Program-made: the position numbers and the translations under genes | Shown here: positions 9,606 to 54,779 of the stretch, piece by piece | Numbering within the stretch: position 1 is the first letter of the stretch | How the letters are laid out: every line of letters starts with the position of its first letter | Origin: Cyanidioschyzon merolae | Taxonomy: Eukaryota | Strand: one strand, 5' to 3' | NCBI GenBank assembly: GCA_000091205.1 | Contig: AP006491.2 | Length of the DNA stretch: 64,000 nucleotides | Notes under the pieces: generated by a model | Seen by the model: only the letters and a program-made list of their open reading frames with translations | Told to the model about the DNA's origin: nothing | The model's database searches: none

Positions 9606-9747
9606 GCGCACGCACGCACGCACGCACGCATACATACATACATACATACATACATACATACATACATACATACATACATACATACATACATACATACATA
9701 CATACATACATACATACATACATACATACATACATACATACATACAG
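9601..9747. repeat. microsatellite (CGCA)n followed by (CATA)n, ~31 units
   Basis: Direct reading: cgcacgcacgcacgcacgc followed by catacatacata... for ~125 bp. Confidence 0.95.
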
Positions 9748-20143: not shown

Positions 20144-20188
<45 letters not shown>

Positions 20189-21009: not shown

Positions 21010-22975
21010 CCCAAACAGATACATGGACACAGCTGGTACCCGAAACGTTCAGACGCCCAGAAGCATCCGGATATCTGCGCGCGGATATTGCCGGGAACCT
21101 CCTGCTTCAACGATACGCACTGCTTCAAGTTTGTAACGATTCCAAATGAATGCTCCTTGTTGACTCCATATGGGACAAACAGATACATGGACACAGCTGG
21201 TACCCGAAACGTTCAGACGCCCAGCAGCATCCGGATATCTGCGCGCGGGTATTGCCGGGAACCTCCTGCTTCAACGATACGCACTGCTTCAAGTTTGTAA
21301 CGATTCCAAATGAATGCTCCTTGTTGACTCCATATGGGACAAACAGATACATGGACACAGCTGGTACCCGAAACGTTCAGAGGCCCAGCAGCATCCGGAT
21401 ATCTGCGCGCGGATATTGCCGGGAACCTCCTGCTTCAACGATACGCACTGCTTCAAGTTTGTAACGATTCCAAATGAATGCTCCTTGTTGACTCCATATG
21501 GGACAAACAGATACATGGACACAGCTGGTACCCGAAACGTTCAGACGCCCAGAAGCATCCGGATATCTGCGCGCGGGTATTGCCGGGAACCTCCTGCTTC
21601 AACGATACGCACTGCTTCAAGTTTGTAACGATTCCAAATGAATGCTCCTTGTTGACTCCATATGGGACAAACAGATACATGGACACAGCTGGTACCCGAA
21701 ACGTTCAGACGCCCAGAAGCATCCGGATATCTGCGCGCGGGTATTGCCGGGAACCTCCTGCTTCAACGATACGCACTGCTTCAAGTTTGTAACGATTCCA
21801 AATGAATGCTCCTTGTTGACTCCATATGGGACAAACAGATACATGGACACAGCTGGTACCCGAAACGTTCAGACGCCCAGCAGCATCCGGATATCTGCGC
21901 GCGGGTATTGCCGGGAACCTCCTGCTTCAACGATACGCACTGCTTCAAGTTTGTAACGATTCCAAATGAATGCTCCTTGTTGACTCCATATGTGACAAAC
22001 AGATACATGGACACAGCTGGTACCCGAAACGTTCAGACGCCCAGAAGCATCCGGATATCTGCGCGCGGGTATTGCCGGGAACCTCCTGCTTCAACGATAC
22101 GCACTGCTTCAAGTTTGTAACGATTCCAAATGAATGCTCCTTGTTGACTCCATATGGGACAAACAGATACATGGACACAGCTGGTACCCGAAACGTTCAG
22201 ACGCCCAGAAGCATCCGGATATCTGCGCGCGGGTATTGCCGGGAACCTCCTGCTTCAACGATACGCACTGCTTCAAGTTTGTAACGATTCCAAATGAATG
22301 CTCCTTGTTGACTCCATATGGGACAAACAGATACATGGACACAGCTGGTACCCGAAACGTTCAGACGCCCAGAAGCATCCGGATATCTGCGCGCGGATAT
22401 TGCCGGGAACCTCCTGCTTCAACGATACGCACTGCTTCAAGTTTGTAACGATTCCAAATGAATGCTCCTTGTTGACTCCATATGGGACAAACAGATACAT
22501 GGACACAGCTGGTACCCGAAACGTTCAGACGCCCAGAAGCATCCGGATATCTGCGCGCGGGTATTGCCGGGAACCTCCTGCTTCAACGATACGCACTGCT
22601 TCAAGTTTGTAACGATTCCAAATGAATGCTCCTTGTTGACTCCATATGGGACAAACAGATACATGGACACAGCTGGTACCCGAAACGTTCAGACGCCCAG
22701 CAGCATCCGGATATCTGCGCGCGGGTATTGCCGGGAACCTCCTGCTTCAACGATACGCACTGCTTCAAGTTTGTAACGATTCCAAATGAATGCTCCTTGT
22801 TGACTCCATATGTGACAAACAGATACATGGACACAGCTGGTACCCGAAACGTTCAGACGCCCAGCAGCATCCGGATATCTGCGCGCGGGTATTGCCGGAA
22901 ACCTCCTGCTTCAACGATACGCACTGCTTCAAGTTTGTAACGATTCCAAATGAATGCTCCTTGTTGACTCCATAT
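21010..22975. repeat. satellite DNA, 164-bp monomer x ~12 tandem copies (>95% identity)
   Basis: Unit beginning 'cagatacatggacacagctggtacccgaaacgttcagacgcccag...' recurs every 164 bp from ~21017 to ~22821. The track's periodic 104-aa (+) and 77-aa (-) ORFs at 164-bp spacing are artefacts of this array. Confidence 0.95.
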
Positions 22976-23462
22976 GTGAATGTGTGTTTGCGTGCGCATG
23001 GCATGCATGCATCCGATTTTCCCCATCTTTACATATTTGTATCAATATGTTTCGGAGCATGTGCATGGACCGGCCTGCACCCTTCGCGTCCTCTACTCGC
23101 GTATACACGTAACCTTCTCACCGGTTATCCGTGAAGCCGTTTGTTCACGTCGACAGGAATCCTTCAGTCTGCGTATAAACGTATCGATATTTCAGTAGAT
23201 CTGTGTATCCATGCACGTGTGCAATCGGGCGGGAAAAGCTTCAGGGGCACCACGATACCGAGCTCTTGCGTTACGATGGTACAAAAAGAGTCCTGGTCTG
23301 ATGCTTGCGCCGCACGTTTGAAGACGTACGGTATTCAAGCGATTCCTACAAAATACAGGCGAACGAACGAACGAACGAACGACCTAATTTTACTGGGAAC
23401 AGCTCCGGGTTCCATATCAAGGCATGCGTTATGTGCGCACTAGACAAGCGTATCGGGCGGTC

Positions 23463-29511: not shown

Positions 29512-30519
29512 CTAAGCGGCAAGCACGTACTTACCCAGAAGTATTCCCAGTAAAATCGCCATCACAAGTTGCACCCACGGTAGGATGAGTAGCGTTGGAT
29601 GTGGTGAGGCACCCAACGCGCCCGTGCTCGAACTCTTGAGCAAGCGGCTGGCGCTCTCGAGTCGCGACTTGAGCAGGGCCACCTCTGCCTGACTCCGCGC
29701 CAGCTCGCGCCGCAGTCGAGCCGTCTCCGACTCTTCTCGTGTCTCCGTCTCTGTCATGTGATCCGGGGTGATTGCTGCTGCTGCTGCTGCTGCTGCTTTC
29801 GACTGCTCCGTTGCAGCATCGTCCCAGTGCACAGAGGGCGCCGCCGCTGAACCACCACCCGCCCCGACACCTGCCATCCGTACCGCGTCACCGTCGAGGC
29901 GCTCGCTTGCTTGCGCGCTCGCCGATGCCGGCGGTGTGCCTGCATCCATACCAGAGGCCGCTGACTTGCCTCCACTGTCCACGGACTGCGACATTCGCGC
30001 TCGGTAGCTCTGGAGCATATTCTCCAAAGTATCCTGATTAAACAGGAACTCACAGCGAAACTTTTGTTCGAAAACCTCCTCACGATCAACGGTATCGAAC
30101 AGACCCGCGTCGAAGGACCGGTTTTCCAGTAACAAGCCTTGGATTAAAAACTTATCCTCGAGTTCCTTGCTGAGCTCCTGTTTCAGACCGTCATAGGTGA
30201 GCACGTCGGCAGCGGGTGTGGCGCTGGTGGCGTCGCCACCGCTCGAGCGGCTCTCCGCCTGCCGTACCAACGCGGCGCACGCGTCCGCAACCACTCGCTT
30301 TAGCGGTTGTAGCTGCACCTGAAGGTCAAGCGTCTCTCCGGGTGCTAGTTTTGCCGCGTTTGGCTTGACACAGTAGCGCTTCGGACGCGTTGTTTTGACC
30401 TTGAACCCCACGTGATCGTTCGCCTCGTTGCGAAGCTTCAGCGTGAGCAGTGTCGGTTTCTCCAGTGAGTCTATATGGAACGTAAACCGCGTCTCAGACA
30501 CGTTCAAAATACGATCCAT
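29512..30519 (-). CDS. VAMP-associated protein (VAP/Scs2 family): MSP domain + coiled coil + C-terminal TM anchor
   Basis: ATG at 30517-30519. MSP signature 'GFKVKTTRPKRYCVKPNAAKLAPGETLDLQVQLQP' (VAP consensus FKVKTTAPRRYCVRPNSG). Coiled-coil 'RLRRELARSQAEVALLKSRLE'. C-terminal TM 'LILPWVQLVMAILLGILLGKYVLAA'. Confidence 0.8.
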   Translation of the reverse strand: MDRILNVSETRFTFHIDSLEKPTLLTLKLRNEANDHVGFKVKTTRPKRYCVKPNAAKLAPGETLDLQVQLQPLKRVVADACAALVRQAESRSSGGDATSATPAADVLTYDGLKQELSKELEDKFLIQGLLLENRSFDAGLFDTVDREEVFEQKFRCEFLFNQDTLENMLQSYRARMSQSVDSGGKSAASGMDAGTPPASASAQASERLDGDAVRMAGVGAGGGSAAAPSVHWDDAATEQSKAAAAAAAAITPDHMTETETREESETARLRRELARSQAEVALLKSRLESASRLLKSSSTGALGASPHPTLLILPWVQLVMAILLGILLGKYVLAA

Positions 30520-30625
30520 GGTGTAGTCAACACGTTTTCTCAGCAGCGTTGATCAGTGCTCAGAAACGAAGGTGTTCGAGTCCCTGCGCTCGCTCGGTAA
30601 TCGCTAACCGTTAAAGGGGTTGGGT

Positions 30626-30667
30626 AGCGGAGGCAATCCATCGATCGATCGAGCGATCGATCGATGG
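30626..30667. repeat. perfect 42-bp palindrome (hairpin-capable inverted repeat)
   Basis: 'gcaatccatcgatcgatcga|gc|gatcgatcgatggattgc': 20-nt arms are exact reverse complements. Lies upstream of VAP and adjacent to the 150-bp satellite. Confidence 0.9.
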
Positions 30668-30809
30668 ATTGCAGCAGCGCCCTGGGGGTGGCGCGGCGGC
30701 AGCGCGCACTGCATCGCGCGATGCATCGATGCTGATTCGGGGCGAGGGGGTGGCGGCGGCGGCGGCGGCACAGCGGAGCATCGCGCGCGATTTTTCGTAC
30801 GATAGTGGG

Positions 30810-32170
30810 TCTCGGATGGATGTTTTTCAGGAGAAAACGTTTCCTTAGGCCAGCGTTCTCCGATTATGCGCATTTTTCTTTTCTTTTTGGGTTTGTTTTC
30901 AGTGCGCGGTGAGGTATCCACCGAATGCTCTACCTCCAAGTTACATTACCTAAGAAGGTCTCGGATGGATGTTTTTCATGGAGAAAACGTTTCCTTAGGC
31001 CAGCGTTCTCCGATTATGCGCATTTTTCTTTTCTTTTTGGGTTTGTTTTCAGTGCGCGGTGAGGTATCCACCGAATGCTCTACCTCCAAGTTACATTACC
31101 TAAGAAGGTCTCGGATGGATGTTTTTCATGGAGAAAACGTTTCCTTAGGCCAGCGTTCTCCGATTATGCGCATTTTTCTTTTCTTTTTGGGTTTGTTTTC
31201 AGTGCGCGGTGAGGTATCCACCAAACGCTCTACCTCCAAGTTACATTACCTAAGAAGGTCTCGGATGGATGTTTTTCATGGAGAAAACGTTTCCTTAGGC
31301 CAGCGTTCTCCGATTATGCGCATTTTTCTTTTCTTTTTGGGTTTGTTTTCAGTGCGCGGTGAGGTATCCACCAAATGCTCTACCTCCAAGTTACATTACC
31401 TAAGAAGGTCTCGGATGGATGTTTTTCATGGATAAAACGTATCCTTATGCCAGCATGCTCCGATTATGCGCATTTTTCTTTTCTTTTTGGGTTTGTTTTC
31501 AGTGCGCGGTGAGGTATCCACCGAATGCTCTACCTCCAAGTAACATTATCTAAGAAGGTCTCGGATGGATGTTTTTCATGGAGAAAACGTTTCCTTAGGC
31601 CAGCGTTCTCCGATTATGCGCATTTTTCTCTTCTTTTTGGGTTTGTTTTCAGTGCGCGGTGAGGTATCCACCAAATGCTCTACCTCCAAGTTACATTACC
31701 TAAGAAGGTCTCGGATGGATGTTTTTCATGGAGAAAACGTTTCCTAAGGCCAGCGTTCTCCGATTATGCGCATTTTTCTTTTCTTTTTGGGTTTGTTTTC
31801 AGTGCGCGGTGAGGTATCCACCGAATGCTCTACCTCCAAGTAACATTATCTAAGAAGGTCTCGGATGGATGTTTTTCATGGAGAAAACGTTTCCTTAGGC
31901 CAGCGTTCTCCGATTATGCGCATTTTTCTCTTCTTTTTGGGTTTGTTTTCAGTGCGCGGTGAGGTATCCACCAAATGCTCTACCTCCAAGTTACATTACC
32001 TAAGAAGGTCTCGGATGGATGTTTTTCATGGAGAAAACGTTTCCTAAGGCCAGCGTTCTCCGATTATGCGCATTTTTCTTTTCTTTTTGGGTTTGTTTTC
32101 AGTGCGCGGTGAGGTATCCACCGAATGCTCTACCTCCAAGTAACATTATCTAAGAAGGTCTCGGATGGAT
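30810..32170. repeat. satellite DNA, 150-bp monomer x ~9, with 300-bp (dimeric) higher-order structure in the distal half
   Basis: 'tcggatggatgtttttcatggagaaaacgtttccttaggccagcgttctccgattatgcgcatttttcttttctttttgggtttgttttcagtgcgcggtgaggtatccacc(g/a)aatgctctacctccaagttacattacctaagaaggtc' recurs at 30812, 30961, 31111 and so on. Alternating variants (ccgaatgc/ccaaatgc; taagaagg/tcTaagaagg) give the 300-bp period seen in track ORFs at 31565 and 31865. Confidence 0.95.
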
Positions 32171-32499
32171 GATGGATTCTGCATTGCGCGATGGATACCG
32201 GTAAACAAGTTCCATGACCTATGCTTCCACACGGATGTCCTGATCGTATTACATGGAACGGGTCCAGGTTCGTGACTCGGACGTACTCGCGGAGGTGTGG
32301 CTCTGTTTCGACGTTCATCGGCACGAGTCTCTCTGTGGGATTTTTATGTGTGAATGCCTCCTCTTCGGTTCGATCATCTGCAGCCTGAAGTATTCCGGTC
32401 GATCCATTTCGTCTGGTGCTATTATCAGACGCCAAATGATCGTGATGGCAGCGTTCAAGTCCCGTTGTCTCTGTTCTTTGTTGTTGTGCACGCATTACC

Positions 32500-33200
32500 T
32501 GGACGGGCGGTGGTCGCGATCTGCGCTTTCCGTGCCATGTTCATCTTCTTTGTCTGAAACTTCGGTGTGCCTTTCGACGCGGTGATGCTTTGCAATACCA
32601 GGGTTTTCCCGTAAACGCACCAAAACATTCTTCTTCGAGGAATGAAATATGGAGCGTGAACGCTTCTTTTAGCGATCGGTGCACGCTCTTGACGAGTGCA
32701 CACGGCTAACCTGAGTAGGTCCCTCGGGTTCCGCGCCCGGTGCTGTGCCCCGAGATCCAGGAACTCCTCAGGGGAATGCCCTCGGCGAGTACGCTACCTG
32801 CTGCATACGCAAGCGAACGCTGTTTGATTCAATAAGGTATTTGTAAAATGCAAGTTTGTCAACGATGAAACATGCAGCAGATGGAAACTCCATACTGGAG
32901 AACAAGCCGAGAAATAAACCTCGATAAGTGTATGCTCCACTCGTGCGAAGCAGAGACGCATGCTCCATCAGAGGCGATCGCTGGGATGACGAAGATCCGA
33001 CTCCAAAACCTCGCTCGATGTAAACGTAAGAGAGGGAATGCCCTGGCAGATGTCATGCTGCTGTTGAATTCCGGGTCCTCGATGGCCACAACGAGTGGAC
33101 GATTTGTCTTTCAAAGATAATTCACTTTGTGACGGAACAAGTTCAGTGAGCTTTTGGTAAGAACTTGTGAACAAGTCGTGAAGGCATGACTTCAAGTTGC
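32500..33200. repeat. dispersed repeat element, copy A (paralogous to 60880..61600), same orientation
   Basis: 32527-32590 matches 60905-60965 ('ccatgttcatcttctttgt..ttcggtgtgcctttc'). 33121-33180 matches 61541-61590 ('gagcttttggta.gaacttgtgaacaagtcgt'). Spacing is similar (~600 bp). Minus-strand ORFs in both copies share 'DLFTSSYQK(L/S)TEL'. Confidence 0.7.
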
Positions 33201-34680
33201 ATACGTCGTCCATCCGGCGCCGGCGATGACTTTTCGACGGCATGCTTTGAAACAGAGGGTTCGAAAATTTTGAAGAATCCGTGATCTGAGCATGCCATAC
33301 GTAAGGCAAGGACAAGGCCGAGGGGTCGTACCCATGCATGGGATTATGATATCGATTCCCTGATGAACCCGTGCTCGTGTTCGTCGTGAACCATCTTGAT
33401 CCCGGTGACCTAAAGAATTCCAACGGCGTCGAAGAAGCCTCTCCAAAACGAATGCCGAAAATCCTGAAACGACGTATCAATTCATTAGCCCTTATTGCTG
33501 GACTTCGAGGTTCGATGCGCAACATCTATACAAGCTCGGAAAGTGATCGAAATGCTCGAACAGAGCGAGCTTCTCATTGTTCCATTTTCATTTGATACAA
33601 GTGTCAGCAGCAATGTTCTCATCCGAGGCGATCAGTGCATCGGGGATGTCCACCGCGGCGCTTGGCGATCCGCTGGGATTTATCCGTACATCGGGCGAGC
33701 AATCTTTTACCCAGAGACTTAGGATCCAAGGTTACAGACACATCTGGGATGCGCCCGGTAGCATCGTCTACTCACGTATGCCCAATCGTACATGTAATTC
33801 GATTTTCATACAGCGACGTTGTCACCCAAGGCGCTATGTACATCTCAAATGTCCTTGCTGGGTTTTCAAGTCTCGGTGCACTCCGCTGATGACACTGCTC
33901 AACGCGTTCAGTTCAGGCTCTACCAGAGACCAACACGACAATCGCAAGATCAGGTCAGACGCAAGCAATACCAAATGGATACCGTCGAGCTGGCACGCGC
34001 CGTCGCGTGTTCCCGTCGGCTCCAGCACATGCTGCAACAGTAAGTCGCATCGTACAGGGGCGCCATTCGGGCTGCGTTTCGATCGTCTGAGCTATCATTA
34101 CATGACCAGTGCGAGAAACACGAGATTCGCACGATGGCTATGCGTGCTGGTTCCAGCCAGCTCTCAGCGTGGCTGTCGATCTATGTACACGGAACCGGAA
34201 ATGCACATGCGCTCCTTGCGTTGAATACCGAAGCGGTGAGTGAATCCTGCAGTTCACGCTGATACCTCGGTTCTCAATTCCTGATCCATGCGAGCACTCC
34301 AAGACACTATGCACAGCTCCGAGCTTCGCTCATGCCGCGAACCAAGCCCAGTATAACCATCTGCATCCCGAGTCATACGCGGATTCGAAAAAACGAACGA
34401 CGACCTAAGCCGTACCCCCGCATCAGCCTGAACCAGATTCCGAATACAAAGCTTACCATTGTAGAAGGCTGATGCCCTGCACTGAGCGAAACCCAGTAAA
34501 CCCTGACTCAGCATACTCGCGTACACCAGCGAAGGCCTTATGGCGCATGTCCGTGACAAGAGTCGTGTGGCAATGCGCATCCATGCGAACATGCCGTGTG
34601 GAGCTGCGCTGTACCCGCAAGGCTCGATACCGCCGCCATAACCCGGCAGCTACGAAACGTCAGCTCGCCTCGTGTACAAT

Positions 34681-35550
34681 CTACAAATGATTTGTTCCCG
34701 TCCCATGGCAGCGCTTACAGGTCAGCATACCCTTGTGTTGGCAGACGGGGCACGGTCGACACACGGTCGACGGATTTCCAAGACGCTCGCGTGCCTCTGC
34801 GTCACCCGCTTGCGCCCGCTCAACGAGCTGATTCATCTCCTCATAGCTGGGAAACGCGGAAACGTATCGGCAGCCAGCACCGCGACACCACGGGCACTGC
34901 CGCGCGCCCGCGCCGTCGCACCAGATACAGCGATCCATGTAGCTACTGAGCGGCGAGCCGAACCCGTCACTCGGATTCCGCTTTCGCCGGTAATACACAA
35001 CCGAGACTCCCCGCGATGCCGCACTGTCCGCAGCACCCGAGCCGGAACGTCTGCACGTGCAATCGTCAACGTCCTGAGCACAGGAACCGGTCCGTGCCTG
35101 CAGGGTGCTGCCTTCACAAGCACAGTCCGTCACTCCAGCAGCTGAAGCGTCCACAAGCGGTGCACGGTTGCCGGACGGCTGCGGACTCGACTGACTCTCT
35201 GGCGTAGCGGCTCCTGTTTCTGTACCTGTGCTTCTGTTTGGGTTCACCGTACGCGTGCCCGTAAGTACGCTCTGCCGCAGCTCGGACGCGAAGCGTGCCT
35301 GGAAACTAACTTCCGGGTGATACACGCCCGGACGCTCAGCCCACGCCGACAACTCCATCGCCACCGAGACCGCGTCGCGCTCATACGCTCGCTCCAGGCT
35401 GCGCCGCGTCGTCGCCCCGCCCTCGCCCAGCGCTCGTAGCTGCTGCCACCGACTCGAGTATCGACTCCGTTTCTCTACTGTCTGACCATAAATGCGCCAA
35501 CTATGTCTACTCGAAAGAAGTCTATCACCTTTCGTTCCGAGAACAAACAT
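34681..35550 (-). CDS. DnaJ-type zinc-finger (CxxCxGxG x4) protein, BSD2-like
   Basis: C-terminal 'CIWCDGAG...CPWCRGAG...CPVCQHKG...CKRCHGTG' gives four CxxCxGxG repeats typical of the DnaJ cysteine-rich domain, in a small non-J-domain protein. The track start at 35574 is GTG; ATG at 35550. Confidence 0.6.
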   Translation of the reverse strand: MFVLGTKGDRLLSSRHSWRIYGQTVEKRSRYSSRWQQLRALGEGGATTRRSLERAYERDAVSVAMELSAWAERPGVYHPEVSFQARFASELRQSVLTGTRTVNPNRSTGTETGAATPESQSSPQPSGNRAPLVDASAAGVTDCACEGSTLQARTGSCAQDVDDCTCRRSGSGAADSAASRGVSVVYYRRKRNPSDGFGSPLSSYMDRCIWCDGAGARQCPWCRGAGCRYVSAFPSYEEMNQLVERAQAGDAEARERLGNPSTVCRPCPVCQHKGMLTCKRCHGTGTNHL

Positions 35551-36289
35551 TGTCGTTCCCTCGGAGCTGTGCACAAAACACCGAACACTTTTGAAATGCT
35601 AGCAACTTTAGAAGCAACTGCAGAGGCGTTCACCACAATGTCAACGGAAGCCGCTACCCGCGAACGGTGATGGCGCTCTTGCCGGCAAAGCGCCTCCGTC
35701 AAAACGCCGCCATCACCGCTGACGCGCGTCGCCATCTCCATCGACACGCCATCGATCGCCAAGATCTTACACCACGCAGCGGCCTGCGTTACCCCGAGCT
35801 GGGCGCTTGGTATCAGTGCACGGTGTAGCATCCATCGACCGACGCCCAAGCCCCATAACCGATACTTCTGCTCGGATATACTGGTTGCTTTGTAGGTTCT
35901 ATCGTGCGCCAAGTGTGTGTCGTGAGCGTCCGCGGCAGCGCCCATAGCGCCGGTGCGGTCGCTGCACGGAGACAGAACATCGTTTCCGTACCACTGAGGG
36001 CGTCGGATCAAGGAATGCTACGCCTGACACGGACTCGGGGCTGGTTATCATTCTGGGAGCCTGCAAGCTACACATACAGAAATACTGCCTGGGGAAGCGC
36101 GAAAAATGATATGCTTGGAGTCCACTAGGAACAACGCGACGCCCAAACGCACACGAAACACCTCCAGTCCCAGAATGAAATGCCTTGCGTACGAGTTGCT
36201 CAGATCTCGCTGAAGCGTCCGTCGCTGGGCAAATCATGAAGCACAATCCTGGTAACTCGTCCGGCTCGCAGGAGCTTCCGCCTAGGAGA

Positions 36290-39105
36290 TAAACTTTCGG
36301 CAATGCGGAAAGCTTTTCGACTTTTAAAGATAACCGTGGTGGCGGAAAGAAATCCTTTTCTCGTTATTACTAGGTGTCTAGTTTCTGTTCTTTTTTTCTA
36401 AAGTGCGCTCGATACGCGCACCTCTATATCTGGCAGGCATCAGACACGACGCGCATGCCGCCGTTGAAGGAAAACGCTATTCTGATCCTTCGCGTGTTGT
36501 TCTAAACTACAAGATGCATTTGCGTTAGAGCCCCAGCAAAGTATAGATTTTAGTTCTAGTGTGTTTCAACCCTAAGATTAACGTATGCAAGAGTTTTTCG
36601 CGGTTTATAACGGAAGCGTTCAAAATGCGTTCATTTTCAAAAATCAACATATACAGGAATTTTATGGGGATGCAGGTCGAGGACCCTGGGAGCACCGCTG
36701 TCGCCGACTGCCGGAAGAAAACCAAAACCAATGCCGAACCCAGAGGAACAAGACGACACCAAGGAGCAAAAGCGTGAGGCTCGGCGTCAGAAGCTGCGAG
36801 AAAGTCGACACTACCACGAGATAATTGTGAACGCATGTCTACTTGGACATACCAAGAATCCGTACAAGGAAAGGTTGCGGGACGCCATCAGAAACCGTAA
36901 CGAGTCGTACTCCAGGGGCATTATAAAGGCTTCGTCAGGGCTGATGCATTCGGTGGAGACGTATCGCGACGTGACGCACATCAAAACAGTCGAGGTTCCG
37001 GAGGAGGTTTTCGACAGGACCTTCATTAGGCACCTAATGCTTGGCAGAGAAGGAACCTCGATGAGAAATGAGCGAGTGCATGCCCTCCATGAAAACTGCG
37101 GCGAACAGCGCTTCAACGGTACTCGGTACGGCGAGAACTGGAAGATTTGCTGGTACGGGACGATGGAGTACCTCAGGAACCTGAAGAACCATTTGAACGT
37201 GAACCTCGGACGTTTCATGATACGCTCTATTTTTTTCGCTGTATCCGGGTCTCTCTCGCAAAGGGATATGGATCATCATCGATGGCATCTTTAACGATCG
37301 TAAGAATGAAGAGGAGATCGACTTTGGCGACTAGTAGACATCACGCTGGAGAAGGAATGCGGCTTCTGTAATCCGTACGGCTATTCAAGAGCACCGTGCG
37401 GTCTTGGCGCTGGCGAATCCAGTAGAAAAGATATCAGAGTTGAAAAAAGATGAAATGTACGTTATGCCCTCATCCTCCGCAATTTCGTGTTTTTGGACCG
37501 AGAACTCGAACGCAAAGCGGAGCTGAAGCTGAGTGAGTGGACAAATGACGAATCGGAGACACGGAAGGGTGCCCTAATGGGGAAGCGCTTCAACGTCGTT
37601 CCGTTGTGCAACATCAAGTCGCACTTTGTGAGTATCGACTCTGGCGTCCTTTACTGCATCAAGAAGGAGATCTGTCCGGAGTTCGATGTAAGGAAGATAG
37701 AGTTCACCGGCGAGAACCGGGAGACGTGCTGGAAGATCATCTTCGATTTCAAAAGTGTCAGATTGCGCAAGAAAACGGTATGCACTGGGATTATCGAAAG
37801 CGAATGGGTATGCATATGTGTTCACAACAGGCGCTTGAAGGTAAATCATCTTGTTCCGTCTTCGTTGGCGCCCTCGGCGAAGCGTGAAGAAAACAACGAG
37901 ACGCGCTCTGGAACACATGATCCGCAGGAGAGCGACTCTGTCGCTGGCGCGGACCCTGGGAATACGAACATCGTGACCATCGCTGCACCTTTTGTTGGGT
38001 AGATGGCAATGACCGCAACCTACGTCAGAAAGACATGCGTGTTCTAAAGTTCTCAGGAGCGAGGTACTATCGAGAATCGGGAATAATGAATGCGAGGAAG
38101 AAAACAGAGAAATGGAACGCAGAAGTGCAAGAGCACCTGGTAGCGATCAGCCAGGTGACGAAGCGCGGAGCGAACTTTCGAGCTTTTCTGGAGTTCATGA
38201 AAATTCTTGCTGCTGATGACGAGGCGCATTGGAAAGCGTATCCAAAAGCCCAGGTAAGCCCGTCAGCGTTTGAATCTGTACAGAGGGAAGCAGCGTACAT
38301 TCGTCACCTTTTCAATGAGTTGAGCGCCCTCAAAGAGCATGAAAGTCAAAGGCTCGTGGTGGCAAACTGAGCAGGGCGTCGGGTGCCCTGCCCAAAGGGT
38401 GTACACCAGCCCCGTCGACATGAGCGTACAACGAATGCGCACAGCGTTTTCACACCATACCGATGGATGAGTTCCGAGCATCCTATACACACCATGCATT
38501 GGGTTGTACGCTTCAGAGGGTCGATATGGAAAAGTGTCAGCGGAGCCCTGAGGGTGTAAAAAAGTCCGGAGCGCTGACGGTACAGCGAATGGAACCGAGG
38601 GCGCAAGTTCGAGGACTGCTTGCATTCGTAAGTACAAGCAATGATGGCAAGAAACGTATGCAGTTTGTGAACCAAGACTTTCATGCCGCTATCAATACCA
38701 GACGAGGAGTTTTCATGAACATGAGACCCGCAGCGCAGACAGAATCCAACTTTGTGGGGCCACCTCCCAAAGCTGCGTTCTACAAGGAGAAGCTGAAACC
38801 GACAGCGGACGGCGGGTCCATGAAAAACGCTACGAGCCGTCTGTTTGTGGGCGCACCAGTACACCGCACATAGGCGCGAGACATTTTTTGCTCTGCAGGT
38901 CACATATATTGGCGCTCATCAAACGTCGAGGCTGGATATCTACATCAAATTCGCAAAAAATACTCAAGACAGGAACAGAGCGAGCAGATGCATGTTCCAG
39001 TTTAGACAAAAGCGAAAGTAGGGTGCTGCGCGCTCGACCACTCGTCTACCGGTATACGAGTCCGAGGAACGAGCCTGCACCGGGGAAAGCTCGTGCCAAA
39101 ACAAC
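36290..39105. mobile_element. AT-richer (~48-50% GC by eye versus ~58-60% around it) inserted island carrying TnpB/Fanzor-like ORFs; putative transposon or Fanzor-associated element
   Basis: Abrupt composition shift. All substantial ORFs (36731-37294, 37487-38002, 38035-38370, 38463-38873) are on the + strand, opposite to both flanking host genes. The block lies between the DnaJ-ZnF gene and the UBA1 3' end. Confidence 0.55.
36731..38873 (+). pseudogene. TnpB/Fanzor-like RuvC nuclease, split over 4 ORFs in 3 frames (pseudogene or intron-containing gene)
   Basis: RuvC-I-like 'VAGADPGNTNIVTIA' at the end of ORF 37487-38002 (TnpB/Fanzor consensus (I/V)DxGxxNxxT; Fanzors often 'IDPG'). 'RVYTSPVD' (the YTS motif that precedes the Zn finger in TnpB) at ~38395-38420 in another frame. 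RuvC-III-like 'FVNQDFHAAINTRRG' (consensus DxNAAxNIxxxG) at ~38680-38725. Order and ~240-aa spacing fit TnpB. The Zn-finger cysteines are degenerate. GT-AG-like sites 'CAGgtaagc' at 38250 and 'gtaag' at 37306. Confidence 0.45.
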
Positions 39106-39111
39106 GCACCC

Positions 39112-42100
39112 TTACCGACGAAAACGATAGCGTACAAATGGTACCTCAACTTCCTCACCAGTGGAGGCATCTTCTGCCATGACTTCGAAAACCAGGAAGC
39201 GGTCCTTGTCGGTCAGTTGTATTTTTCCAACGGCTTGCGCAAGCTCAGTAAGCGGCGTCGCGCGGCGTTCCGCGGCCTTTTTCGGTGCTAACCAGCCTGA
39301 AAAGAGGATCGCAACGCCACACGACATCATGCTGATATGGAGACCAAGCTCGCGCTCAAAATGCTCCATGAACTCGGCCAACGTCAGATCGTGTCCATTT
39401 CCATCTACCTCGATACGATCCCACAGCGAGAACGTACGGTTACCGCTGGGTGACATGGGCTGCAACGGGGCCTGGATTGGTTCGCTAAAGTTGAAAAGTG
39501 AAAGTGCCAGGTTCACGTAGCTGTTGCGGAAGCGCTCGAGCACCTTGACGCGATCGACGAGCGGGACGCTCGTTCCGTTCGTCACAGCGGAGCTCGTGCT
39601 GATCGCGGAGAAACTCGAAGCTGAAAGCGCCCGTGGATTCGTCCTCAAGATCGGACGGATCTGAGCGAGCTTGTAGATCTCGAGACACACGAGCCCTGCC
39701 ACCAGCGCGGTACTCGTGGCAATCGCGGGTATGATTCGCCCCGCGATGCCTCGTGACTTGTGCTTGTCCGCCAGCGGTATCCCATAATTCAAAGCGCGCA
39801 AATTGCTCGCAGCGGTGACGAAATCCATGTCCCAGCGATCCTCGTCGTCTTTCTCGAACTCCAACGGATAGAGGGACAAGCTGGCAAATGATTCGGGTGG
39901 CGGCAAGCGCGCCAACAGCTGCTCAATGCGTTGTTGGTCGACATTGGCGGTCACAGCGGCGCCGCTTGCTTGCGCCTCCTCCTCAGAAGCGGCAATCTTG
40001 ACACCAGAACTCGGTTGGAAAGCAGGTACCGAAACATTCGCAACGATCGCTCGTACCTGCTCGCGATCTGTGCAGAGAGGTATTCCGAACGTCTCTGCGC
40101 GCAGGTTTGCCGCCGCTACAATGAACTCAAGGTGCAACGGATCTGCAGGATCGAAACGAAGCGGCGTCGGCGCCCGTTTCGTCCCGCTCCAAAATGGCTG
40201 TCCCGAGCTGTCAACCATATCTGGCGGAAACGCGTGAAGTAGCTGGCGAATATTGTTGACGTAGAGTTCTTCGAACTTGTTGCGCGCCCAAACCACGCAG
40301 TCCTTGAAGTTTTGCGGGCGATACGTCTGCAGGTTCTCAAGTACGTTCTCCAAAGCTCCAGAAAATATGCCGGGTCCCTGTTTCTCTAGCTCTGCGATGT
40401 ACTCAGAGCCTCGCTCCAGGTACTGCTTGGTATCCTCGATGGAGGCCTTGAAGAGGCCCTCAAACAAATCGCGAGCCCATTGAAGCGTATGTTCGATTCT
40501 GTAGGGGAAATTTTTCAGCGTACACATGGGAATGCTTCGCTCCGGCGGGTCGCGCGACGATCCGTATGACTCGGTGAGATAGGGAACCACCACTTGGGTG
40601 CTGCCTTTGGTGCCTAGCGTGCCGGAATCCAGCAGAGGTTTCAGATAGTAAACGCAGCGCTGATCGATATATAAACGAGCGTCAACATTATCCAAGGCCG
40701 TGCAAACCCCATCGAGCGGCTCCCAGAAATCATCGCTGAAGACATGCTCGGTGTCCGGTCCAACGCGCATCTCGAGCGCTCGAACGTTGAGCTCCGGATT
40801 CAGCCGCAGAGCGGCATCGCGTGCCGCCAGGGACTTGCTGCGGCCAATGTCGGTTGCTCGGAAGAGAAACTGCCGATTCAGATTGCTCCGTTCTATCGTG
40901 TCCATATCGGTAATTGCAATCGATCCACCATGACTCGCGAGTCCCAGTCCCATGCACGCCCAACATTTGAGGAGCTCTGCAGCAATCGCTCCGGCCCCAA
41001 CACAAAAGTAGGCCAGATCGTGAATCGTATCCTGCAACGCACGGCCAAAGACTGCAATCTGTCCGTCATAGCGTGTCCCCCGGGGAGCGCACTCCAGCTC
41101 GTTTGGCAACGGCGTCGGTAACGCCTCCATGGCGTTGAACGAAAAGATCTGGTGAATGGGGGTAAACTTGCCGGTGACTGCCTTGAGAACCTCCTGTGCG
41201 GCGATCCCACCAAGAATCGATGCCATCGGAGCGAGCTCCCCGTATACGGTTCTGACAAACGCGTTAAGCAATGCATCGTGCTTTTCTTGAATATCGGCGG
41301 GTAGCATGCGCTTGAACGCCGCAACTTCAGCCTCAGTACCAGGCGCAGGCAACCGTCCGAATTTTGATAGAGCCTGAAACATGGCATGCAATGCAAAGGT
41401 TCGCTCCTCATTCATAAAGTCCAGCGATGCAAACCAATTCGGGTCCACCACGTCTGAGAGCGTGGCGCTCTCTGGATCCCATGTCGACGCTGCCATTCTA
41501 TACAGCAGCTCAACCGGGTGAAAGTGCACCGTGCGGGGTACTTTCACTTCAGTGACGATGCCACCCCGTCGGTAGACGCCGGCCTCACGGGTGTCAGCGT
41601 CAATCACAAAAGTATACGGACTCGTGATCTGAACGACACGAAACATCCGGTTGGGTTCATTGAACATGGGCATTCCGTCCACCTCGGTGAACATGACATA
41701 CATTCCTTCCTCCAGGTCATGCCGCTGATCATCGAGGCAGGTGACGCACGCCTTTTCCTCATTCGAAATATGGCTGATATGCGCGGATCGTGGCTCCTCT
41801 CCGTTGTCATCGATAACTGTATGGGCGTCGCCAAAATCGTTGAGGACGTAGCCGAATACTCCTCGTGACTGAACGATCGTCAGTGGCACCCTAACCGATC
41901 GGCAGACGCGATCGAGCTCGATGTGCCTATCGATGGAGAGCTCGTTCACTAGCACAACTGCTGCAAACCCACGAATACGATCTGGATCAATGAGTTCCGC
42001 CCAGGACGCCGCGTCCTCCGTGTACACGTGACAGTACGGGTTCAGCTCCACTAGGTGCGGTACCACGACCGTATGAAGTGGTGTCCCCAGCAGTGACGCA

Positions 42101-42378
42101 TCGCAAGCGTAAAAATTGGCGGCCATATGCTGCAAAGCTAGTGGTGCTGGATCATAGACGTGGAGCGCATGGAAGCCAGCCAGCGCCAGGTCTTTCGCGA
42201 TCTCCGTTCCCGTCCCTGTGAGTCCAATCACCAGCACTGAAGCTCCTGCGAGGCGACGTTGCGCCTCGTGACCCAGCACGTACAGTTGACGCGAGTACAG
42301 GGACTCGTCTATGGCCCCGCTCTCTGCTTGCGTGCGCGACACGCGTTCCGGTGGGACAGAGTCCCCCAGCCGCAACAT
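39112..42378 (-). CDS. UBA1: ubiquitin-activating enzyme E1
   Basis: 'YSRQLYVLGHEAQRRL' (E1 N-terminal hallmark). Two ThiF/MoeB folds ('VLVIGLTGTGTEIAKDLALAG' and 'YFCVGAGAIAAELLKCWACMGLG'). Catalytic-Cys region 'PMCTLKNFPYRIEHTLQWAR'. C-terminal UFD. The track start at 42552 is GTG; the first ATG is at 42378, 25 codons before YSRQLY. About 1089 aa in one ORF. Confidence 0.9.
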   Translation of the reverse strand: MLRLGDSVPPERVSRTQAESGAIDESLYSRQLYVLGHEAQRRLAGASVLVIGLTGTGTEIAKDLALAGFHALHVYDPAPLALQHMAANFYACDASLLGTPLHTVVVPHLVELNPYCHVYTEDAASWAELIDPDRIRGFAAVVLVNELSIDRHIELDRVCRSVRVPLTIVQSRGVFGYVLNDFGDAHTVIDDNGEEPRSAHISHISNEEKACVTCLDDQRHDLEEGMYVMFTEVDGMPMFNEPNRMFRVVQITSPYTFVIDADTREAGVYRRGGIVTEVKVPRTVHFHPVELLYRMAASTWDPESATLSDVVDPNWFASLDFMNEERTFALHAMFQALSKFGRLPAPGTEAEVAAFKRMLPADIQEKHDALLNAFVRTVYGELAPMASILGGIAAQEVLKAVTGKFTPIHQIFSFNAMEALPTPLPNELECAPRGTRYDGQIAVFGRALQDTIHDLAYFCVGAGAIAAELLKCWACMGLGLASHGGSIAITDMDTIERSNLNRQFLFRATDIGRSKSLAARDAALRLNPELNVRALEMRVGPDTEHVFSDDFWEPLDGVCTALDNVDARLYIDQRCVYYLKPLLDSGTLGTKGSTQVVVPYLTESYGSSRDPPERSIPMCTLKNFPYRIEHTLQWARDLFEGLFKASIEDTKQYLERGSEYIAELEKQGPGIFSGALENVLENLQTYRPQNFKDCVVWARNKFEELYVNNIRQLLHAFPPDMVDSSGQPFWSGTKRAPTPLRFDPADPLHLEFIVAAANLRAETFGIPLCTDREQVRAIVANVSVPAFQPSSGVKIAASEEEAQASGAAVTANVDQQRIEQLLARLPPPESFASLSLYPLEFEKDDEDRWDMDFVTAASNLRALNYGIPLADKHKSRGIAGRIIPAIATSTALVAGLVCLEIYKLAQIRPILRTNPRALSASSFSAISTSSAVTNGTSVPLVDRVKVLERFRNSYVNLALSLFNFSEPIQAPLQPMSPSGNRTFSLWDRIEVDGNGHDLTLAEFMEHFERELGLHISMMSCGVAILFSGWLAPKKAAERRATPLTELAQAVGKIQLTDKDRFLVFEVMAEDASTGEEVEVPFVRYRFRR

Positions 42379-43978
42379 GCTTGTCCGGCGGTTTTTCCAA
42401 CTACCCGAAGGCGACTCACCGTCAGGGCCCCGTAACAGACGTTTGCTTCCGGTTCCCGTCTTGACGCTTTTCGCTTTTTCGCACAAACCTGCGCACAAAT
42501 ACAGCTGAAGACGACGCCTGCCGCTGATCGCTTTGTCGACTTTGTTCACCACCGTTTAGGGCAAGCGAGCAACCTAACCAGCTTATGAGACGTCCCAGAG
42601 CAACTTTTCCGTTCAAACGCTTGTCACCTGAGCACTTCCCCGATGAACTATGGGCACACAGTCAATTTAGACGATCCTGAACACAACGTCAGTCCCGAAC
42701 ATGCACCTGCACTCATTCGGCGCACGCAGGCAACGCACCGACTCCTGTCGTCACGCTGGCAGCGCTGGCGCCGCCTTTCGGGCGCGCGCTGCGGCGATTG
42801 CGTGCGGCTGTCGATGATGCGTGACAGCGCATTCGTGGCGTGGCACGACGCGCGGGAACATTCGCACATTCACCACCACAAACGCACACACGCATATCCC
42901 GTATGCATGCCACACACGTCTTGCTATTTTGGAAGACTGCAGAAGGCAGGCAGCGTGCCTCATATGCCGGCACGAAACCGGTGATCAGCAACGAGACGTC
43001 AACGCTCCCGCAGACGTTTTTCTCGCATGAATACCAGTCCAGTGGCACTCTGGGGACAAAGTGCTTGAGCGATCAGATGGCGTCCCTGGTGCCGAGTCTC
43101 CGGCAGATGCCGCACCGAGCCAGGGCCGCGCTCCTCTGCCTGCGCAGGTGACGGATCGAGGCATGCCGGGCAAGTCCGCCGTCGACGCCGCAGGAACATG
43201 AACAGGCGATGCCGAGCGCGTCCATCAGATTTTTTGTGGCGGATGACTGAAGAACCTGATGAAAACTCCCCGGATGCGCGTGCGCTACAAGCGATCAGGG
43301 CAGAGACCGCATCACCTCAAGGGATGCGATGAGGCGCTATGAGTCCCAGAATGGTGCGCTCCTCAGGCGTATCGGCTTGATGGGTCGTGTGTAATCTCCC
43401 GGATACCGAGGATGCCTCACAGGTATGCTGTGGTGCCCCAACTGTCGCCCTGCAGCGACAGATGGGCATTCCGATTCGTGTCCAGGCGTCGTTTCATGGG
43501 CAGGTGGCCAGGTGCGTATGCAGGAGCACGGCGACTATTACGTGCAGCGGGCACCGAGGACCACTGGAATGATCGCGCTTGCTTGCGTGGCGCGTATCAG
43601 AGGACGGGCGCGAGTCTTCTGGTATAGACCTGATCCAGAGGTAACGATTATTCCACACGAATGAACCTGGACTAGATGCACTGCGTAACAACCGTCCGCT
43701 TACGGGCTCTGTGCACACTTTCGTCCATCGTTGCATACCGGAACAGCAGAACAGTAGTGTCCGAAATCATCCATGTTTCGAAGCCGCTGCACGCAGAACT
43801 GAATGACTCGAGACTGTGCCGCCGGAACGCCCCTTCAAGCGCAGCATTGCCATACGAGTGCACCGGTGTACGTCAAGCGCGCTGTGCCCCCGCGTCTCTC
43901 TCCATTCCATGAGGACAGAACGACAACATCCCGAAATCGTCCTTGCCCTAGTAGAGAGGCCGCGCGAACAAGCGGATC

Positions 43979-46662: not shown

Positions 46663-48039
46663 GGCTGCAGCGAGCACTGTGGCCCCGCCAGTTCTGGACG
46701 AGATGTTGGCTCTGCGCTTCGTCTACGAAGCACATGAGCCTGACGCTGTGTTGCGCATTCAGAGGGCCGGCTTGCGCGTCTTCAGAGTACTGCTTCCCGG
46801 ACGCCGTTGCTCAGGAGCAGCTGGAACTTTTGCTGCGCTATCGGCGACCTTGTGATAGACGCAGCGTGCAGCCATTGCATCCCGGTTCGGTGTGCTGACG
46901 CTAGGCACTCGACACCCAGAGGATCGCACAAGCGAACCAGTGCTATGATCTCCAGAGGTAAGTTTGTGTGATGGTGAAAGTGATGGTGATGATGGTTTTG
47001 GTTGTTGCCCAAGGACCCTGGAGGTCTGTTGCTGAACGTTGGACGTTCTCTCGGATGCAGGTAACCCGCTTGCAATTGAGAATCCCCGATACCTGTTTAA
47101 ACGATCCGACATCCGAAAAACTATCGTCCGCAGCGCTGCCCCTCTGAGACGGTCATTGATGGATCACGCAGATCTTCCAGTCAGAAGCGCAGCTTCTCGG
47201 TCGGTGCTGAGAGTGAAGCATCTATCGCGTATGTGTCTTCATGGAAAAAGCGACGCACTCCTGTCTCTTCGCACATGCTCACGGTCACGCGTTGCTGCGG
47301 AATATGCACCAGTTGACCGCACCGCCTGATCAGCGCCTGAGGCGAACATGAGAACGTGCTGCGCAGCGCATGTGCGGCCCCGAAACGATTCCTCTCTAGC
47401 GCTCGATCCACTGATGGAATGAAGGTCGCGTCCGAGACTCCGCCACCGCGACGAAGCGATGCTACCAAGATGACGCATCTGATGATGCTGAGCGGTGAAC
47501 GGGTTCTCGCCTGCGTCCATGCGTGCGTGCGTCCTCGTATAGCGCCCCAGTTTTCCATACTGGACGGTAACGTGGCATTTACTGATCGCTTCGCACACAG
47601 GCAGTGTCAATGTGCACACGAACGCGTGTATGAGCATCGACTCTGGGGCGCGCTACTCTTCTGGCTCGCGACCACGTCCAGGCCGGTAACCGGGCACGCA
47701 CACCGGTCTTCCATATAGCGCTTTTCCGAATTCCGTAAACACTTTTCCAGAAGGTTTCCCTTGCCGCTGTTTGTCCCAACGCATGGCTGAAGCTTTGAAG
47801 CGCCCGGAGCTCATCAGATGAGCGCAGGCGTGGAAGCGAGCGCGACTCGATCGCGATGCACGGCGTCTCCCTCGAGTCGGCGCCCTCTGTGTGGTATAGA
47901 AAAGCCGTTCTAGCTCTATGAACTATCTGCTCCAGCGGTTCAGGCGCAAAGGCGGAGACGGAACTGCAGGTTCTAGGCACACACGATAGGTCGTATGAAC
48001 CGACCAGAATATCCTAGAAGAAGTATAGGTCGTGTAACT

Positions 48040-48175
48040 TGGAGGTAGGGTGTTTCATGGATACTTCACCGTGCACTGAAAAAAACACAAAAAGAAAGGA
48101 AAAAGCGCACAATCGGAGAACGCTGGCACAAGTAAACGTCTTGTCCATGAAAAAACAAGAAGAAAAAAATGCATG
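48040..48175. repeat. solo, diverged, inverted copy of the 150-bp satellite monomer
   Basis: 'ggaggtagggtgtttcatggatacttcaccgtgcactgaaaaaaacacaaaaagaaaggaaaaagcgcacaatcggagaacgctggc' is roughly the reverse complement of the 30810-32170 monomer ('...gccagcgttctccgattatgcgcatttttcttttctttttgggtttgttttcagtgcgcggtgaggtatccaccgaatgctctacctcc'). Confidence 0.75.
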
Positions 48176-48495
48176 GCGTCTGCGCGAACAGCCGCTGCGG
48201 AGCAGCGTACCCGCCACGTCAACCGATATTGAACGAGGTGTTGGAGTCTCGAATGCCTGGGAGCGTGCCCCTACTCAGGTGCTTATCTATTAAATAAACG
48301 TCGCTGGAGCTATCGAATATTGGAGCGAGGTGCTCGCTATACTTGCTTGTGAATCGAACCGGCGAAGCGGGCGCTTTGCTCGGAGGTTCTCGCGAGGTCG
48401 GGTGGGCCGCTACCTCTGCCACAGGCATCGGCAGGTGCAGCGCACCGTGCACGTGGTGCCTCTTGGAGACGCGGCCCGCGTAGCGCTGGCCTTCT

Positions 48496-48532
48496 CGTCG
48501 CCGGTGTGTGTGTGTGTGTTTGTGTGTGTGTG
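48496..48532. repeat. (GT)n dinucleotide microsatellite
   Basis: gtgtgtgtgtgtgtgtttgtgtgtgtgtgtg. Confidence 0.9.
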
Positions 48533-53611: not shown

Positions 53612-54779
53612 AGCGACCTCTATAACGATTGAACTTGTTCGACGTGCGTGTATGTCCTACAACAACCCGACACGCATTCGAATTCGCATACGCACGCATC
53701 CGGCGCACGCATGCACCGACGGTGATGAAACGCCATCGCGATGCGTGCGCAGCATGCGGCGGTGGTGGCGGTGGCGGTGCCGGTGGCGATGCCGGTGGCC
53801 AACTCCCGTACGTTGGGTCTGTAGGCGGCATCGCGATCGCCCTGCGATGCGGCTACGGCGGCGTCGGTACGCTTCCGCCGCGGCCCGATGCGCTACGAAA
53901 TCCGTTGACAGCGCGGTGACGTCGCGCGCGTCGAGCCTCGGATGCGGCGTTCTATCGCGTGTAGCGATGCTGCTGATTTTTTTCATTGACAAAACGCTTA
54001 ATTTGACCACGGGTCCTCGAATGAACGATGATCATTGACGACTAGGGTGATCGGCCATCGTAAAGCACCCTGCATCCGGGTTCCATCACCTGTTCTCTGA
54101 TGTAATGATCGTTTTTACGTTCTATCGTGCGCCGAGTACCTGCTTTTGAGCGCCTGATAGAACGCCTGTAGCGTCACGCATGGAGTAGCGGGAGCACCGA
54201 CGCGTCCTGCATGCTATCCTGCGGAATCCTGGTGATGCAGCTCTGAAAAGCGGTATCTATGGCGGTCGCGCTGAAATATGTGCTTTCGACGGATTCGCTG
54301 CAACCGTTGAAGGTTCGGTTCCAGATGGTGTCGGTGTTCTGCGTGCTCGAGCGAGCAGGCTCTGGTGTATGATGCGGGCTGCCTGGTGCTTAGCGTCTGG
54401 ATGCAACGGATGCGCTTTCGCAAACAGTTCGTTATGTGCCGTTTGCGTTCGAAACTTGTTACCTTTCAGGAGCGAATGAAGCTTTCCACAGTACCCGTTT
54501 GAAAGGGTCTTTTAGAATGTAAAATCGGGGAATCTGAACAGAATACACGGGATTTGCGGTTGCTGTGCGCAAGCGAGGAAGAGCGCTTGATCAGCGCTGC
54601 TTCGTGGCATGTCGGGCTGGTCAGCATCGATTGTGCTCGTCCCAGCGAATCCAACCGCGCTTCTACACAGGATCACGCCCGGTCAGCGGCTCTGAATCGA
54701 ACTTTTTCTGTCGACTGCTCCGAGTCGCATGTCGTTTTCTGTTTCGCACATGCACATCAACCATGGTTTTCAGTGGATT

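Follow-up and report, generated by a model that had tools for sequence, protein, structure and literature searches.

The tandem array at positions 30808-32171 of the window, the 64-kb stretch of chromosome 9 of the red alga Cyanidioschyzon merolae 10D that was analysed here, is best explained as the tail of a retrotransposon that was amplified locally into a minisatellite, with the 3′ end of a LINE serving as the repeat unit; we assign this reading a probability of about 80%. For the narrower claim that the array unit is of LINE origin, the evidence laid out below leaves hardly any room for doubt.

A 150-bp array with a young two-unit period

The window contains a single array at 30808-32171, reported by TRF with a period of 150, 9.1 copies, 97% matches, 0% indels and a score of 2581. 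It is built from nine head-to-tail units and a closing 15-mer (unit 1 is 149 bp long, units 2-9 are 150 bp each), amounts to 1364 bp (1.36 kb) at a single locus, and has a GC content of 43.8% against 56.8% for the window. The features that make up the array and its dimers are as follows.

30808..32171, minus strand: tandem array (TRF, unit table and match to the LINE model)
31258..31557, plus strand: oldest of three 300-bp dimers, units 4-5 (A/B sites shared; unit 5 with five private changes)
31558..32157, plus strand: two identical 300-bp dimers, units 6-7 and units 8-9 (pairwise differences and lag-300 identity)

In a base-by-base alignment, units 2, 3 and 4 lie one or two sites apart from one another, unit 5 carries five private changes, and one T absent from unit 1 is the sole indel in the array. 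From unit 4 on, five unit positions alternate (39 T/A, 73 T/C, 116 G/A, 135 T/A and 142 C/T, with 135 and 142 changing together), and the order of the variants across units 4-9 is A-B-A-B-A-B. Identity within units 4-9 is 98.8% at a lag of 300 compared with 95.7% at a lag of 150, and the pairwise difference matrix shows no differences between units 6 and 8 or between units 7 and 9. Three 300-bp dimers (units 4-9) are therefore preceded by three or four undifferentiated monomers. The initial annotation, made from the sequence alone, had described a 150-bp tandem repeat with an emerging dimeric higher-order period, and both hold: TRF recovers nine units at 97% matches, and the alternation proved consistent at every unit from the fourth to the last, with identity higher at lag 300 than at lag 150. 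Its ccgaatgc/ccaaatgc variant is the G/A site at unit position 116, but the extra-T variant that it described as alternating is a C>T substitution, the only length difference being the T missing from unit 1.

With head-to-tail monomers and a multi-monomer period that is backed by shared diagnostic variants, the array has the structure of a satellite with a higher-order repeat, but not the length or the spread across many loci, being a single 1364-bp array among the matches listed apart from its orthologues. The identity of units 6-7 and units 8-9 is the most recent duplication, which took place in a two-unit register, and the young dimeric structure therefore points to unequal exchange in that register.

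The unit is the end of a LINE 3′ UTR bounded by a 15-mer

All units align to a model of the 3′ portion of the LINE (LINE-HMM, 1717 positions), matching positions 1556-1695 on the minus strand with E-values of about 1e-27 to 1e-35, tail included. By this alignment, the 150-bp unit corresponds in antisense to the last ~140 bases of the LINE together with an A5 tail. Read on the minus strand, each unit runs from a 15-mer through ~130 nt of the end of the LINE 3′ UTR to the A5 tail. The 15-mer, GGTCTCGGATGGATG (CATCCATCCGAGACC in LINE orientation), is present in exactly 10 copies at a spacing of ~150 bp, with start positions from 30808 to 32157, and it is found at every junction between units as well as at the array's two ends. 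In LINE orientation the layout is nine repetitions of CATCCATCCGAGACC, LINE 3′ fragment and A5, then one extra CATCCATCCGAGACC, then unique flank. The two outermost copies are listed here.

30808..30822, plus strand: left 15-bp direct repeat GGTCTCGGATGGATG, which follows the last A tail; putative 3′ target-site duplication (TSD)
32157..32171, plus strand: right, closing copy of the 15-mer; putative 5′ TSD, its 3′ part ATCCGAGAC collinear with the LINE

A 15-mer at the junctions and at both ends is the arrangement expected if one 5′-truncated insertion with a 15-bp TSD had been tandemized via that TSD, and the 15-mer fits the TSDs of the LINE family in both length and position. Nine of its 15 nt (ATCCGAGAC) are collinear with the LINE consensus at a posterior of about 0.6, and the 6 nt that follow ATCCGAGAC read CTTCT- in the array versus GAAGTA in the consensus. 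We read this overlap as probable microhomology at the 5′ junction; because ATCCGAGAC is collinear with the consensus, the 15-mer could be partly element-derived and not pure target DNA.

Beyond the closing 15-mer lies unique flank that is conserved in the metagenome contigs L020, L044 and L066. On the left of the array, the flank has no significant homology to the LINE; a decayed unit was considered there and rejected, as local alignment scored no higher than for shuffles (p about 0.43). Among the metagenome contigs, neither an empty site nor an allele with a single insert was recovered for the array locus.

A dispersed LINE family is the source of the unit

A 23-nt motif common to the array and to the solo copy near 48 kb was scanned against JGI hot-spring metagenome contigs. 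The motif matches at least 120 contigs, nearly all of them with a single copy on an otherwise unique contig, and flank comparison separates about 62-63 distinct loci among the matches listed. Beyond the 300-bp part, copies at non-orthologous loci have more than 1.4-1.7 kb of upstream sequence in common. In contig L029, the upstream ORF is contiguous with the shared 3′ end and matches RVT_1 (Pfam E=1.5e-18); this ORF carries the motifs FIDFQKAFDT, RGLRQGD and LLADDVVLL, and part of it aligns at 85-91% identity to proteins with the annotation 'retroelement, alive [C. merolae 10D]'. The linkage of the RT ORF to the 3′ end was read from the metagenome contigs, the longest of these loci ending inside the RT region. 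A full-length LINE with an endonuclease domain was not recovered from these contigs, and no RT ORFs were found directly upstream of the very short copies at the listed loci.

The LINE 3′ UTR is roughly 590 nt long. Across 56 distinct copies among the matches listed, all 3′ ends fall at the tail, while the 5′ ends are scattered from LINE-HMM 2 to 1617, with three at or beyond the start of the model, ~20 within a few bases of CCTCGAG (LINE-HMM 1399-1411) and the rest dispersed. A-rich tails are visible in the alignments of the copies. An unanchored TSD test, with shuffled upstream/downstream pairings as controls, gave a score of at least 10 for 24 of the 56 distinct copies among the matches listed compared with 8 of 820 shuffled pairings, and TSD lengths in the family are ~10-27 nt. 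TCG directly follows the A tail in 18 of 62 copies among the matches listed, against a background of 2.3%, and the upstream TSD copy carries the same ATCG; LINE insertions thus show an apparent preference for sites next to ATCG-like sequence, with a suggested target of about C|ATCG. Judged from these sequences, and because the longer copies extend into an RT ORF, by at least 1.7 kb in the upstream direction, the family is a dispersed non-LTR (LINE) retrotransposon that has an RT ORF and A tails, with TSDs and 5′ truncations. The link to a mobile element that was initially suspected is thereby borne out, as the unit is the 3′ end of a dispersed LINE. The proposed direction, a satellite unit that can itself disperse, is reversed: the LINE loci, with their RT ORF, A tails and TSDs, are the source.

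The solo copy near 48 kb is a separate insertion

A search with the array unit found an inverted copy at 48026-48154 on the minus strand (nhmmer E=1.5e-28, 85% identity over 131 bp). The concern that this copy might be too diverged to be homologous does not apply at this level of similarity. Homology to metagenome loci continues from 48155 to 47870, well past the monomer, and defines a larger element with its own flanking repeats.

47870..48169, plus strand: solo copy, a 300-bp short-form or 5′-truncated LINE (LINE-HMM 1404-1687, E=2.3e-75; ortholog in L001)
47856..47868, plus strand: 5′ TSD of the solo copy, ATGCACGGCGTCT (direct-repeat comparison)
48169..48181, plus strand: 3′ TSD of the solo copy, ATGCATGGCGTCT (12 of 13 nt identical to the 5′ copy)

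The element starts with CCTCGAG at 47870 and ends in the A-rich tail CATGAAAAAACAAGAAGAAAAAAA, which extends up to 48169, and its TSD is 13 bp long. It is an independent LINE-type insertion, twice the length of the monomer and with a TSD of its own. What had been described as a stray monomer is accordingly one part of a 300-bp retroposon, and its adjacency to a (GT)n tract is incidental, as the (GT)15 tract at 48504-48534 lies ~335 bp from the element and outside it. Inspection of the flanks and termini, which the initial annotation had proposed as a way to look for TSDs or MITE-like ends, revealed the former as the 13-bp pair and gave no sign of the latter: the termini, CCTCGAGTCGG... and ...CATGAAAAAA, form no terminal inverted repeats. 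Their absence from the element, along with the variable TSD length in the family, rules out a MITE. The A-rich tail, the 13-bp direct repeat and the lack of terminal inverted repeats indicate target-primed reverse transcription. The 286-bp boundary at 47870 was also considered as the full length of the family and was discarded, since it was limited by the query and other copies extend further.

Other arrays and wild alleles

An independent array of the same LINE end is present at another locus, on contig L084, where a 116-bp period is repeated 4.9 times with 92% matches. Its layout is again a direct repeat, a LINE 3′ fragment and an A tail, repeated and then closed by the direct repeat TGGATCGATGGAT, the 3′ part of which once more overlaps LINE sequence. 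As far as its sequence can tell, this second array supports a general mechanism with the TSD in the junction. Arrays in the 150-bp phase were found in none of the at least 120 matches listed beyond the orthologues L020, L044 and L066.

The orthologous environmental arrays have the same flanks as the 10D array and the same polymorphic sites in other combinations; one wild last unit, for example, reads 39A, 73C, 116A, 135A and 142T. These contigs cover at least 3.6 units (L020), at least 2.4 units (L044) and 2 units with both flanks (L066, a possible assembly collapse), and the strict A-B-A-B order of 10D was not seen in the short stretches that they cover. Reshuffled variants of this kind would fit ongoing exchange or conversion.

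Genomic neighbourhood and the centromere question

The ORFs around the array include those for a Mg-protoporphyrin methyltransferase, an E1 ubiquitin-activating enzyme, a PEX1-like AAA ATPase and a sterol reductase, all of them long and uninterrupted. The ChlM ORF is 100% identical to XP_005536230.1, and the VAP-like ORF matches BAM79940.1 exactly; the array is located 289 bp upstream of this VAP-like gene, which lies on the left of the array. Only three annotated proteins separate the VAP-like gene (BAM79940) from ChlM (BAM79944), and the stretch from 30.5 to 39.1 kb contains at most one ORF of at least 200 aa. Metagenome contig L001 is 99.4% identical to window positions 39051-55009, with the solo copy present. 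In total, the 64-kb window holds five LINE-derived features, namely the array and four separate copies or fragments, of which the three besides the solo copy are the following.

32206..32249, minus strand: old diverged LINE fragment of 44 bp, 35 bp to the right of the array (3′-end model 152-195; nhmmer)
35811..37048, minus strand: older LINE copy, degraded to three collinear pieces (LINE-HMM 39-244, 270-418 and 1363-1610)
53974..54196, minus strand: old diverged LINE 3′ fragment upstream of an ADP/ATP translocase gene (LINE-HMM 1452-1690, E=4e-12; also in L001)

With nhmmer, the fragment at 32206-32249 has an E-value of 4e-5 when the whole window is searched and of 2.6e-7 when only the flank is. 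The part of the LINE that it represents overlaps the part found in the unit, which makes it a remnant of its own that does not continue the array. The three pieces of the copy at 35811-37048 have E-values of 5e-6, 5e-9 and 4e-44, and its last ~100 nt are absent. The three other minisatellites in the window have no matches to the LINE-HMM and were ruled out as products of the same LINE.

The initial annotation had likened the dimeric period to that of centromeric satellites. This analogy is not carried by the distribution of the repeat, which forms a single 1.36-kb locus near the VAP-like gene, with no other 150-bp-phase array among the matches listed apart from its orthologues. C. merolae centromeres are characterised, in a passage of 10.1101/096016 that cites Kanesaki 2015, as 2-3 kb low-GC regions (48.4% GC) with no shared sequence pattern. 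The local composition matches the published one, with 44% GC for the array and about 49-50% GC for the stretches 30-34 kb and 36-38 kb. We allow a slim chance that the array and the gene-poor, low-GC stretch around it at 30.5-39.1 kb, with its LINE remnants, form or lie directly beside the CENH3-bound centromere of chromosome 9. In that case, a LINE-derived satellite with a nascent higher-order repeat would be part of a C. merolae centromere.

Proposed origin and alternative explanations

For the specific route by which the LINE tail was amplified, a step seeded by the TSD is the best fit, and we regard it as moderately probable. Target-primed reverse transcription would have placed a 5′-truncated copy 289 bp upstream of the VAP-like gene, producing the 15-bp TSD CATCCATCCGAGACC, the 3′ part of which had microhomology to the LINE at the truncation point; the empty allele would then read ...AATCCAT-CATCCATCCGAGACC-CACTATCG.... 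Slippage or unequal exchange between the TSD copies could have generated the first dimer with the TSD in its junction, or else a second insertion into the same target could have done so. Unequal sister-chromatid exchange on 150 bp of homology would have expanded the dimer to nine units, and an exchange offset by two units would have left the two identical 300-bp dimers as a nascent higher-order repeat. The units are ~85% identical to the solo copy and the family model, compared with 94-100% among themselves; the amplification is therefore much younger than the divergence of the element, or the array has been homogenised. A nested history more complex than one insertion is possible, because the left flank is without LINE homology while the right flank carries an old fragment. 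The array is most likely a neutral by-product without a dedicated function.

The array, with its 5′ boundary common to all nine units, could also have arisen in one step at insertion, by RT template jumping (from ~1556 back to the poly(A)) or by a rolling circle and reinsertion. The existence of a second array of the same LINE end in L084 is in keeping with such an origin, and rolling-circle and multi-insertion routes are discussed in PMC5932611. However, the 15-mer occurs at every internal junction and also after the last A tail, beside the unique flank, a pattern that one would expect from a TSD in the junction but not from template switching on RNA alone. The graded divergence, in which units 1-5 differ and units 6-7 equal units 8-9, points instead to stepwise events, and the wild arrays with reshuffled variants also speak against a single step, which we consider improbable. 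Much less probable still is an independent satellite family with a 150-bp unit, homogenised in a centromere-like manner and with monomers that sometimes disperse. The tandem structure with a dimeric higher-order period and the low GC relative to the window would be accounted for in this way, but the dispersed copies reach far beyond the monomer, with lengths from 300 bp to more than 1.7 kb; they have A tails and TSDs, run into the RT ORF and have boundaries that never match the phase of the monomer, and among the at least 120 matches listed the 150-bp array is found at the orthologous locus only.

A further alternative concerns the element from which the unit was taken. Short copies form a discrete class of ~290-300 bp with a 3′ end common to the LINE (~20 distinct copies among the matches listed), and this short form reflects either a hot-spot of truncation or a SINE-like derivative that has no head. 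The cluster of 5′ ends at CCTCGAG, to which the solo copy belongs, and the TSD found immediately upstream of the start in many of these copies would be accounted for if both the unit and the solo copy came from a separate non-autonomous, SINE-like retroposon of ~300 bp that borrows the LINE 3′ end. In the longer copies, however, this sequence continues without a break into the 3′ UTR and RT ORF, ARAGORN and Rfam revealed no tRNA, 5S, 7SL or snRNA-like head, and a 6-bp hairpin predicted just upstream in the LINE consensus may stall reverse transcription at CCTCGAG. We therefore hold a separate SINE-like source to be possible yet the weaker candidate; the array unit is a shorter fragment on either view. 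ARAGORN found 0 tRNA-like genes in the window, and an E-value search of positions 30000-49000 placed no Rfam families on the element. A SINE with a tRNA-like head was consequently rejected, its A/B-box-like motifs having been seen by eye only.

Comparison with known systems

Local amplification of a LINE tail, as preferred here, presents each step in the birth of a satellite from a retrotransposon within a fully sequenced 16.5-Mb genome: the source LINE, its short TSD-flanked copies, an insertion amplified with TSD junctions, and a two-unit period that is one duplication old. It is an ordinary case, a clean example that introduces no new principle and leaves the understanding of TE-derived satellites unchanged. 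For C. merolae, 26 class I non-LTR elements have been reported, three of them with intact RT (Nozaki et al. 2007, PMC1955436). That count covers RT-related elements only, and the paper describes neither the many short 3′-end copies with their TSDs and target preference nor tandem arrays derived from them; our results suggest that C. merolae has many more short LINE-derived insertions than the quoted 26 retroelements. The family described here resembles these elements, which NCBI annotates as 'retroelement, alive', in the RT ORF upstream of its 3′ end, at the partial-length identity given above.

Tandems of transposable elements with the TSD in the junction, followed by unequal exchange, are known for R1 and other Drosophila elements (McGurk & Barbash 2018, PMC5932611). 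The present array is like the Drosophila melanogaster R1 array and non-LTR dimers in that it stems from a non-LTR element, with 5′-truncated units joined tail-to-internal and a putative duplicated target in the junctions, and in its later growth by unequal exchange, which here we infer. Unlike the R1 array, its unit comprises no more than the final ~140 nt of the 3′ UTR and not a near-complete element, its target is an ordinary intergenic site and not rDNA, and its junction repeat is partly collinear with the element itself. Satellites seeded by transposable elements are well known more generally (reviewed in PMC9659126 and PMC12628747), as in the case of Tetris in Drosophila virilis (PMC4079207), and the array shares with them a fragment of a dispersed element that becomes a monomer and then evolves in concert. 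In contrast to these satellites, it is tiny (1.36 kb) and confined to one locus in the gene-dense euchromatin of a 16.5-Mb genome, and its source is a LINE 3′ end where theirs is a foldback element or MITE. Finally, the alternating diagnostic variants with a two-monomer period, which unequal exchange in a shifted register is expected to give, are like those of centromeric alpha-satellite higher-order repeats, which differ in scale: there, a homogenised array reaches chromosome scale, whereas here three dimers occupy 0.9 kb.

Tandem and inverted arrangements of the LINE 3′ end

The 150-bp array, whose units are antisense 3′ ends of the dispersed LINE, has an orthologous counterpart on the hot-spring metagenome contig Ga0080006_1154464 (locus L066, 1906-2225), in which both unique flanks are present and only two units are found. 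This two-unit assembly represents either real copy-number variation or a collapse of the repeat in short-read data. The same contig also carries the locus of the solo 300-bp LINE copy, as L010.

A second, independent tandem array from the LINE 3′ region was detected in L084 (contig Ga0078972_1002689, 2810-3367), with a 116-bp unit in 4.9 copies at 92% matches. This array, also seen in L093, L094 and L025, contains two junction types, GGAGGATCTTTGG and GATGAGAAAATGG. At a further locus (L011, ~2096-2325; the same locus in L049, L070 and L082), two LINE 3′ ends are inverted tail-to-tail, with their A/T tails touching.

Other tandem repeats in the window

Further tandem repeats in the window include three large minisatellites and three perfect or near-perfect microsatellites:

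9174-9609, minisatellite, 109 bp x 4, 98%
9629-9746, microsatellite, (CATA)29.5
20144-20188, microsatellite, (TTGC)11
21012-22976, minisatellite, 164 bp x 12, 99%
48504-48534, microsatellite, (GT)15
61753-62331, minisatellite, 193 bp x 3, 98%

As the 164-, 109- and 193-bp minisatellites matched neither the LINE nor any of the ~1 Mb of related loci, they are local arrays. The (GT)n tract that the initial annotation had linked to the solo copy is the (GT)15, which lies ~335 bp from the element and beyond its target-site duplication (TSD).

Coding potential and genomic setting of the array

A 189-amino acid ATG open reading frame (30866-31435, + strand) runs across units 1-4 of the array and ends in unit 5, which is mutated. 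It stays open from one unit to the next solely as a result of the unit length, 150 bp being a whole number of codons (50). No identical protein was present in the protein collection searched, and the open reading frame therefore probably lacks a gene annotation.

The array and LINE debris are included in an 8.6-kb region (30520-39111) with unusually few genes and low GC, in which the single open reading frame of at least 200 amino acids with a Pfam match is a weak, zinc-finger-like one at 34681-35574. BAM79940 (the VAP-like gene) and BAM79944 (ChlM) are separated by only three annotated proteins.

Insertion sites and 5′ ends of LINE copies

In many insertions among the metagenome loci (for example L102, L081, L047, L034, L030 and L118), TSDs starting with ATCG directly follow the A tail, and TCG stands directly behind the tail in 18 of 62 LINE copies compared to a background of 2.3%. 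Together, these sequence patterns suggest that the LINE uses a sequence-preferring endonuclease.

The interval separating the array from the start of the VAP-like gene contains a 40-bp, ATCG-rich near-palindrome (GCAATCCATCGATCGATCGAGCGATCGATCGATGGATTGC, 30633-30672), built of the same ATCG motif that is the apparent target preference of the LINE.

About one-third of distinct LINE copies share a CCTCGAG start (model positions ~1399-1411; window position 47870 in the solo copy), directly upstream of which longer copies carry a 6-bp hairpin (ACCCGA...TCGGGT). This recurrent start marks either a site of reverse transcriptase stalling or the beginning of a headless, SINE-like sub-element.
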